This document shows positions 5,890-5,999 of a stretch of DNA of 5,999 nucleotides, one piece after another. The stretch is from a virus (taxonomy: Duplodnaviria > Heunggongvirae > Uroviricota > Caudoviricetes). Both the position numbers and the translations under genes were made by a program. How positions within the stretch are numbered: the first letter of the stretch is position 1; every line of letters begins with the position of its first letter. The DNA lies in the IMG/VR virus record IMGVR_UViG_2740892045_000001; one strand, written 5' to 3'. The notes beneath the pieces were generated by a model. The model was not told where the DNA came from and ran no database searches. It saw only the letters and a list, made by a program, of their open reading frames with translations.

Positions 5890-5895
5890 ACTCGT

Positions 5896-5900
5896 CTCCT
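5896..5900 (-). promoter_or_regulatory. Shine-Dalgarno for V (GGAGA, 5-nt spacer)
   Basis: mRNA reads CAGGAGACGAGU-AUG, a strong well-spaced ribosome binding site, consistent with V being the most abundant tail protein. Confidence 0.6.
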
Positions 5901-5901
5901 G

Positions 5902-5928
5902 AAAATAAAAAAACCCGCCAGCGGCGGG
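5902..5928 (-). terminator. Intrinsic-terminator-like GC hairpin plus U-tract immediately upstream of the V ribosome binding site
   Basis: Minus-strand RNA CCCGCC-GCU-GGCGGG (6-bp all-GC stem, or 5 bp with a 5-nt loop) followed by UUUUUUUAUUUU. It lies between the upstream gene stop (5950..5952) and the V Shine-Dalgarno. Confidence 0.5.
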
Positions 5929-5949
5929 TGGGGAAAATCATTAATGACC

Positions 5950-5999
5950 TCAGGCTATTACCTGAAATTCAAGCGTGGCTCTGCTCAGACGGGAGTCAG
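5950..5999 (-). CDS. 3' end of upstream gene (product unknown; by position a tail completion/terminator-type protein)
   Basis: The only minus-strand frame open to the window edge reads ...DSRLSRATLEFQVIA* with TGA at 5950..5952. Sixteen codons are too few to identify it; the functional guess is from gene order only. Confidence 0.3.
   Translation of the reverse strand, partial: DSRLSRATLEFQVIA

Follow-up and report, generated by a model that had tools for sequence, protein, structure and literature searches.

Why should a structure that looks like a rho-independent terminator lie inside a phage late operon, directly in front of the gene for the most abundant tail protein? The question is raised by a GC-rich hairpin in a stretch of 5,999 nucleotides from a virus of the Caudoviricetes (IMGVR_UViG_2740892045_000001), which was analysed as a whole and is referred to below as the window. 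Annotations of terminators within the late operons of phages go back 25 years, and the 2020 genome paper of phage L still states about such internal late-operon terminators that "their roles are not known". The hairpin described here offers a good test case, being simple as well as strong, occurring in roughly one in six complete E. coli genomes and keeping its geometry from the phages of E. coli to those of Burkholderia. Deciding whether it serves as an insulator, a dosage step, a decay barrier or a translation leader would explain a common feature of gene organisation in prophages.

All genes in the window are located on the minus strand and belong to the late tail module of an HK97-like lambdoid temperate phage, occurring as an E. 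coli prophage. The DNA is 94-99.8% identical to that of induced E. coli phages, e.g. vB_EcoS-569R6, Evi and phi467. A complete prophage of the same type (strain 4/0, locus L003) displays an HK97-type head module, followed by the tail genes and then by the lambda-type genes K, I, J and lom. A query of 140 bases, spanning the hairpin and both of its flanks, was recovered from 899 of 5426 complete E. coli genomes, and its location was always chromosomal.

Upstream of the hairpin, the last 16 codons of the tail completion gene are contained in the window (5950-5999, minus strand). This gene is Tc1/gp17-like (DUF3168) and equivalent to gene 11 of HK97. Its ORF ends with ...LEFQVIA and the stop codon TGA at 5952-5950 (minus strand); the relatives, where the gene is annotated as 'tail completion protein gp17' or 'Tc1', have the same terminal TGA. 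Downstream, the gene for the major tail (tube) protein of 234 amino acids is found (5185-5889, minus strand). The protein is HK97 gp12-like with an Ig-like C-terminal domain and gives weak Pfam matches to TTP_11/Phage_tail_2 and Ig_2. Its start codon, the ATG at 5889, is the same as in the PGAP call for strain 4/0. The identity with the product of HK97 gene 12 (gp12) amounts to 73.8%, and no close relationship exists with lambda V. The initial annotation had named the gene V. It is indeed the major tail protein gene, but the label holds by analogy only; the element has no counterpart between U and V of lambda. The module continues on the same strand with the tail chaperone gene G (5185-4799), which overlaps the major tail protein gene, the tail chaperone gene T (4787-4497, with its stop codon at 4499-4497), the gene for the tape measure protein of 1077 amino acids (4456-1223), M (1275-889) and L (889-191).

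The tail completion and major tail protein genes are separated by a gap of 60 nt in total. On the minus strand, the gap begins with a G-poor, single-stranded spacer of 20 nt between the TGA and the stem (5930-5949, GGUCAUUAAUGAUUUUCCCC). The stem-loop (5913-5929) consists of 7 pairs, 6 of which are G-C, with the 5' arm ACCCGCC at 5929-5923, the loop GCU at 5922-5920 and the 3' arm GGCGGGU at 5919-5913. It is followed by the U-tract U7-A-U4 (5902-5913), made up of U7 at 5913-5907, A at 5906 and U4 at 5905-5902, whereby the first U also closes the stem. The Shine-Dalgarno (SD) sequence AGGAG (5896-5900) is positioned 6 nt before the ATG of the major tail protein gene and is part of CAGGAGA at 5901-5895, after which another 5 nt precede the start codon. 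A stop codon, some 20 nt, a GC stem-loop, a U-tract and CAGGAGA-N5-AUG had been described initially, and all of these elements are found, base for base, where they had been placed.

The segment 5902-5935 (minus strand) folds exactly into this hairpin, with a minimum free energy (MFE) of -12.6 kcal/mol; the hairpin makes up 0.86 of the ensemble, and the z-score versus shuffled sequences is -2.57. The sequence features of an intrinsic (rho-independent) terminator are all present, in agreement with the signature that the initial annotation had recognised. The stem is GC-rich and, with 7 bp and a 3-nt loop, falls within the typical range of about 5-14 bp with a short loop; a U-rich tract is located directly 3' of the stem on the transcribed strand; and the 20-nt spacer keeps the non-coding element at sufficient distance from the upstream stop codon to permit folding of the hairpin. 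Across the window, the hairpin is the best match of the terminator scan. Sites of equal strength were observed in 0 of 300 dinucleotide-preserving shuffles of the window, counted on both strands with thresholds matched to the hairpin (at least 6 GC pairs and at least 7 of 8 T directly after the stem), which rules out a chance hairpin. In the plus-strand direction, GGGGAAAAUC and not a U-tract comes after the hairpin, so the terminator signal is unidirectional.

The Rfam 15 covariance models, searched at E up to 1, gave no match at 5890-5952; the sole match in the window is with an irrelevant snoRNA model at 1430-1485. One MFE structure contained a long-range pairing between CCUGAG, which surrounds the stop codon, and UUCAGG of the SD region; this pairing was dropped, as it is not conserved in relatives. 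A weaker terminator-like site of 5 bp with 4 GC pairs can be seen within the coding region of the tail protein (5360-5373, minus strand). It is probably due to chance, as shuffles give about 0.2 sites each at such lax thresholds.

The gap has been a source of confusion for gene callers. In a set of 80 near-identical IMG/VR loci, the run of T directly behind the stem is six, seven or eight long (T6, T7 or T8). In the T6 form, an upstream ATG (5939-5941, minus strand) comes in frame and results in gene calls of 251 amino acids. Calls of this type comprise the Evi CDS (locus L001, 9059-9814) and the proteins P0002, with 1760 member sequences, and P0005. They carry a false N-terminus of 17 residues, MILPTRRWRVFYFQETS, before MSSN, which is the translation of the hairpin and the U-tract. 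The possibility that the 251-aa ORF with this extension is coding was rejected, because the T6/T7/T8 indels shift the frame. Since single-base indels are tolerated, the gap is non-coding and the 251-aa calls are artefacts. The length of the T-run thus determines whether a false N-terminus is added to the major tail protein.

The hairpin and its U-tract are real, clearly non-random and conserved. A GC hairpin with a U-rich tract at most 70 nt upstream of the tail-protein start was found in 181 of 181 related loci, ranging from Enterobacterales to Burkholderia. This set is composed of 80 close relatives, 22 loci from other enterobacterial genera, HK97, Fraca, an Stx2a phage, a Klebsiella phage and 77 Burkholderia-type loci. 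The other genera are Phytobacter, Symbiopectobacterium, Serratia, Leclercia, Buttiauxella, Pectobacterium, Raoultella, Klebsiella, Enterobacter, Kosakonia, Superficieibacter, Brenneria and others, with tail protein identities of 58-79%; for the Burkholderia phage vB_E253 the identity is 38%. Most of the 80 close relatives have the identical stem. Over all 181 loci, 42 distinct stem-loops are present, with stems of 5-9 bp and loops of 3-6 nt, and the sequences of loop and spacer vary freely. The Stx2a phage, for instance, carries AACCCGC-CGCGU-GCGGGUU; the same element accompanies the HK97-type tail genes in the lambdoid prophages and Stx phages of E. coli O157:H7 Sakai. All one-sided substitutions in the stem yield G-U wobble pairs, e.g. 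GGCUCGC/GCGGGCU, GGUCCGC/GCGGGCC and ACCCGCU/GGCGGGU. The U-tract is kept in all 181 loci, even in the GC-rich Burkholderia phages, which favours an action on RNA polymerase over a purely structural hairpin.

Classical covariation is of limited use here. All stems have a common CCGC/GCGG core, and double compensatory changes are therefore indistinguishable from register shifts. Alignment with MAFFT followed by RNAalifold on 22 diverged junctions returned no consensus structure, because the different loop lengths put the arms out of register. A per-sequence hairpin search was used instead; it is fitted to the structure and hence does not amount to independent evidence of covariation. What points to selection is the persistence of position and structure rather than covariation in the classical sense.

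This persistence is most evident from the geometry. In a strict terminator scan of 26 diverged loci (157 kb), 67 sites were found on the sense strand versus 10 on the antisense strand, and all 26 loci have a site at -33 to -42 from the ATG of the tail protein. The spacer from stop codon to stem measures 13-29 nt, and mostly 17-22 nt, in 23 of the 26 loci; for the other three, the upstream stop was mis-called by the ORF rule. The pooled spacers are poor in G (37 of 545 bases, next to 193 C, 166 A and 149 T). From the end of the stem, it is 8-13 nt to the SD (GGAG or GAGG) and 18-23 nt to the ATG. Between genera, there is no sequence conservation upstream of the hairpin. Within the 80 close relatives, near-identical sequence is found on both sides of the hairpin, and the 140-nt query over both flanks is covered for at least 80% in each of the 899 matching E. 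coli genomes; no mosaic breakpoint is thus visible at the hairpin. A separate observation concerns a locus from Klebsiella spallanzanii (L096, around 2960-2985), in which the stem-loop AACCCGCC-GCU-GGCGGGUU is identical to that of the window. The tail protein of this locus is just 58% identical and the flanking spacer is different. The shared stem-loop may reflect strong constraint, a simple design reached by convergence, or a local exchange.

As an annotated feature, the element is not new. In the HK97 record (AF069529.1), gene 12 encodes the major tail subunit, and the orthologous site between it and gene 11 (6692-6719) was labelled 'terminator, putative' in 2000. This orthologous junction reads AACCCGCC-AGAU-GGCGGGUU-UUCUUUUUCC-AGGAGA-N5-AUG and has the stem core CCCGCC/GGCGGG, the U-tract, AGGAGA and the ATG in common with the window, at equal spacing. 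The differences are found in the loop, which is AGAT in HK97 and GCU here, and in the U-tract, which is interrupted in HK97 (UUUUCUUUUU). In addition, a putative terminator directly follows gene 12 in HK97, whereas the V and G genes overlap in the window. The HK97 record lists further putative terminators: one at the portal gene's end, one following the capsid gene, one between moron gene 15 and H, and one that precedes I. What is added here is the depth and regularity of the conservation (181 of 181 loci, a fixed geometry and a G-poor spacer), as well as the link to the mis-called tail-protein starts.

A similar design can be recognised in lambda between D and E (NC_001416, about 6100-6116; locus L190, 578-636). 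There, the stop codon TAA is followed by a G-free spacer of 19 nt, the stem-loop AGGCCGC-CUGU-GCGGCUU, U7 and the start of E. In lambda, too, the Q-dependent late operon carries the element in front of its most abundant structural gene, but the lambda element is part of the head module and not of the tail module. No feature is annotated at this hairpin in the lambda record (NC_001416). A further hairpin is located directly after E (L190, 1664-1681), and no such element is present at U|V (gap of 7 nt), V|G (gap of 15 nt) or T|H (overlapping genes). The design thus recurs beside abundant structural genes in Q-driven late operons, at a junction that differs by lineage.

In SPP1, predicted rho-independent stem-loop terminators in intergenic gaps delimit the late gene clusters (PMC6316719). 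However, gene 17 (tail completion) and gene 17.1 (tail tube) are separated by 13 nt, and the terminator follows 17.1*. SPP1 also differs in that no Q-type antitermination is known and the late promoters are largely unidentified. The idea that the element is general to the Tc1|tail-tube junctions of siphophages was rejected, given the gaps of just 7 and 13 nt in lambda and SPP1. As both phages express the equivalent genes without it, the element is accessory and not essential to such operons. For phage L and the P22 group, rho-independent terminators are predicted inside a late operon with a single Q-type (gp23) antiterminated promoter, and two roles have been suggested for them: partial termination, or the stopping of transcription that is not antiterminated (PMC8022706). 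These phages differ from the present one by their P22-like podovirus virion module, in which the junction is the end of the procapsid module, and a sequence relationship is lacking.

Some other identities were considered as well. A moron is an insertion of promoter, gene and terminator (PMC3594210), whereas the 60-nt gap holds no ORF and no promoter-like site. An Hfq-type sRNA that ends in the hairpin, similar to HnrS or StxS, was likewise rejected, as no promoter-like site is found in the tail completion gene of L003 and the upstream sequence is unconserved. HnrS is a 66-nt sRNA from the late genes of EHEC prophages, with EHEC/EPEC strains accounting for 99% of its carriers (PMC13502914). A link of the hairpin to HnrS is unlikely because this strain distribution does not fit (the position of HnrS is not given). 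A literature search returned no published 3'-end mapping or mutational data for the hairpin or for an orthologous site.

The hairpin is accompanied by other terminator-like sites in the same operon. In the window, a second element, AACCGC-UUCG-GCGGUU followed by U8, lies at 4465-4488 (minus strand), 8 nt after the stop codon of T and just before the RBS of the tape-measure gene. Most relatives contain a strict match at this location, +1400 to +2000 from the ATG of the tail protein and before the tape-measure gene, and a further strict match about 1.5-1.8 kb upstream, after the capsid gene. The prophage of strain 4/0 has the same three junction sites and two more around lom. Behind its capsid gene (L003, 10522-10599), the hairpin AGACCGCG-CCGA-CGCGGUUU with a U-tract is found about 19 nt past the stop codon; a second GC hairpin, GCCCGCA-CAGUGU-UGCGGGC, is present right before the next SD and has no U-tract. 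In HK97 and in a Klebsiella phage, the junction between T and the tape-measure gene contains an extra small gene, which is the moron gene 15 in HK97.

From the sequence evidence, the element is probably a functional intrinsic terminator in the late operon that is bypassed by Q. Unmodified RNA polymerase would release its transcript at the U-tract. The transcripts that are stopped would be those leaking through from the constitutive late promoter, or those that begin spuriously within the head genes of a lysogen. In the lytic cycle, a polymerase modified by the phage Q protein at the late promoter would ignore the signal and continue into the tail genes. After such read-through, the hairpin would still form in the mRNA and could block 3'-to-5' exonucleases from entering the upstream segment, which is the weaker part of the proposal.

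The window itself holds neither Q nor the late promoter; phage Evi, which is 97.8% identical across the region, encodes a Q antiterminator (PF03589, E 6.9e-51). Q is described as making RNA polymerase resistant to termination signals (PMC6606751). In the Burkholderia relative, no Pfam match was obtained for the protein that occupies the Q position, so this lineage cannot show whether the element needs antitermination. A consensus scan revealed no sigma-70-like promoter between the hairpin and the tail genes (weak or activator-dependent promoters could escape such a scan). This agrees with the original placement of the hairpin inside one late transcript and would make the tail genes dependent on read-through.

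The initial annotation had proposed that the terminator is read through by antiterminated polymerase only, silencing the tail genes of the prophage. The presence of Q in Evi and the same idea in the literature (PMC8022706) both speak for the read-through, and this main interpretation appears reasonable, matching published speculation. The silencing purpose is less well founded: another terminator-like site is present about 1.5 kb upstream, after the capsid gene, and no promoter-like site is found in between, so that insulation by the hairpin would be partly redundant. Insulation of the tail genes in the lysogen nevertheless is a plausible benefit.

The spacing would also suit a terminator. For lambda tR2, the termination efficiency was shown to be almost zero at several bp from a stop codon (the shortest constructs having 8-9 bp), to range from 0.12 to 0.8 at 17-18 bp depending on the sequence, and to reach about 0.9 beyond 30 bp; Li et al. 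recommend low-GC, unstructured spacers so that the hairpin can fold (PMC4824070). By these data, a spacer of mostly 17-22 nt is about the shortest that would allow the hairpin to form with a ribosome on the stop codon. In a compact genome, a signal directed at the polymerase during transcription would be expected to show such spacing. Downstream, the layout is maximally tight, as the U-tract runs into the SD. The same tightness is seen before the low-copy tape-measure gene, and hence it can be ascribed to compaction rather than to a special translational role. A point against the Q-bypassed terminator is that its position before the most abundant tail protein would be odd if Q-modified polymerase, too, loses some of its transcripts there. 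Prophage insulation, a modest step-down in dosage and mRNA protection are all candidates for the benefit that maintains the element, and the sequence is compatible with each of them.

One rival reading is that of a partial terminator (attenuator), which acts even on Q-modified polymerase and, together with the sites at the capsid and tape-measure genes, steps transcript levels down along the operon, its efficiency being tuned by how closely the ribosome trails the polymerase. Three sense-strand terminator-like sites at the same three junctions in most relatives would suit such a series, a spacer of about 20 nt lies in the range of intermediate, ribosome-dependent termination, and partial termination is among the two roles suggested in PMC8022706. 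The dosage would change in the wrong direction, however, as the attenuator would lower the mRNA of the tail protein made in the largest amount and leave that of the low-copy connector genes upstream untouched. Q complexes are moreover generally described as terminator-resistant (PMC6606751), and an attenuator is considered unlikely. A role that is mainly post-transcriptional, in which the hairpin is a barrier to mRNA decay and sets the ratio of the tail protein to the upstream product, is rather unlikely. It could take the form of a block to 3'-exonucleases for the upstream segment or of a 5' cap-like stem on a processed tail-protein mRNA. The stability of the hairpin (0.86 of the ensemble), its location at a cistron boundary and the similar hairpins that flank the capsid gene and the V-G-T block are consistent with it. 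A stabilising 5' hairpin or an RNase processing site was also the alternative offered by the initial annotation, and this alternative is weakened by the U-tract, which is not needed for such roles and yet is retained throughout the set. In addition, the protected segment would code for low-copy connector proteins, and no conserved AU-rich site of the RNase E type is found upstream, where the spacers are C/A-rich and variable. For RNase III, a stem of 7 bp is too short. As far as decay is concerned, a barrier effect is likely to be a side effect, as with any stable hairpin.

The element might also be a translation device, with the U-rich stretch before the SD serving as an S1-binding or standby enhancer and the hairpin insulating the RBS from upstream structure. 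The fixed distances from the stem end to SD and ATG in 26 of 26 diverged loci and the identity of the downstream gene, which encodes the tail protein with the highest copy number, would fit this role. The same adjacency of hairpin, U-tract and SD nonetheless occurs before the low-copy tape-measure gene, while after the capsid gene a second hairpin separates the U-tract from the next SD; the layout of these junctions indicates that genome compaction explains the adjacency of hairpin and SD. Lambda V and SPP1 gp17.1 are also expressed without such an element, and a translation device is distinctly unlikely. A more speculative and still more improbable reading considers the conserved cassette of stop codon, G-poor spacer of about 20 nt, hairpin, U-tract and SD as a ribosome-gated checkpoint. 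The polymerase would then terminate whenever it arrives lacking either a closely following ribosome or Q. Expression of the major tail protein would be shut off strictly in lysogens, and the U-tract would double as an unstructured leader for high translation of the tail gene in the lytic cycle. According to a bioRxiv preprint, abortive-infection systems are reported to sense certain phage proteins, major tail proteins among them. If true, the checkpoint and the lambda D|E design would together represent a general way to bracket the most abundant and most immunogenic virion genes. It is extremely improbable, finally, that the element lacks any function, having arisen by chance or as a scar left by module exchange, or belonging to a longer tail-protein ORF. 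The ORFs that some gene callers run through the hairpin (the Evi CDS and P0002) and the position of the junction, which divides the head-completion and tail modules, could be cited in its favour. Such an origin is contradicted by the result of the 300 shuffles, by the occurrence of the structure at every locus of the set with 42 different sequences, by the frame shifts between the T6, T7 and T8 forms and by the lack of a mosaic breakpoint at the hairpin. The Q-bypassed terminator remains the preferred reading.

Two minor observations concern the genes around the second terminator-like element. The 3' end of the G gene reads GUU AAA AAA AAG UAG (4799-4813, minus strand) and contains the -1 slippery heptamer A AAA AAG in its classical form at 4808-4802 (minus strand), directly before the stop codon of G. 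The T ORF is in the -1 frame relative to G, which fits the conserved G/GT tail-chaperone frameshift. As T is made by this rare frameshift only, few ribosomes would reach its stop codon. The longest tape-measure ORF starts with the ATG at 4456, which abuts the SD GGAGA with zero spacing (4450-4461, minus strand). In the PGAP annotation of strain 4/0, the tape-measure gene starts two codons later with the GTG at 4450, which results in a normal SD spacing.
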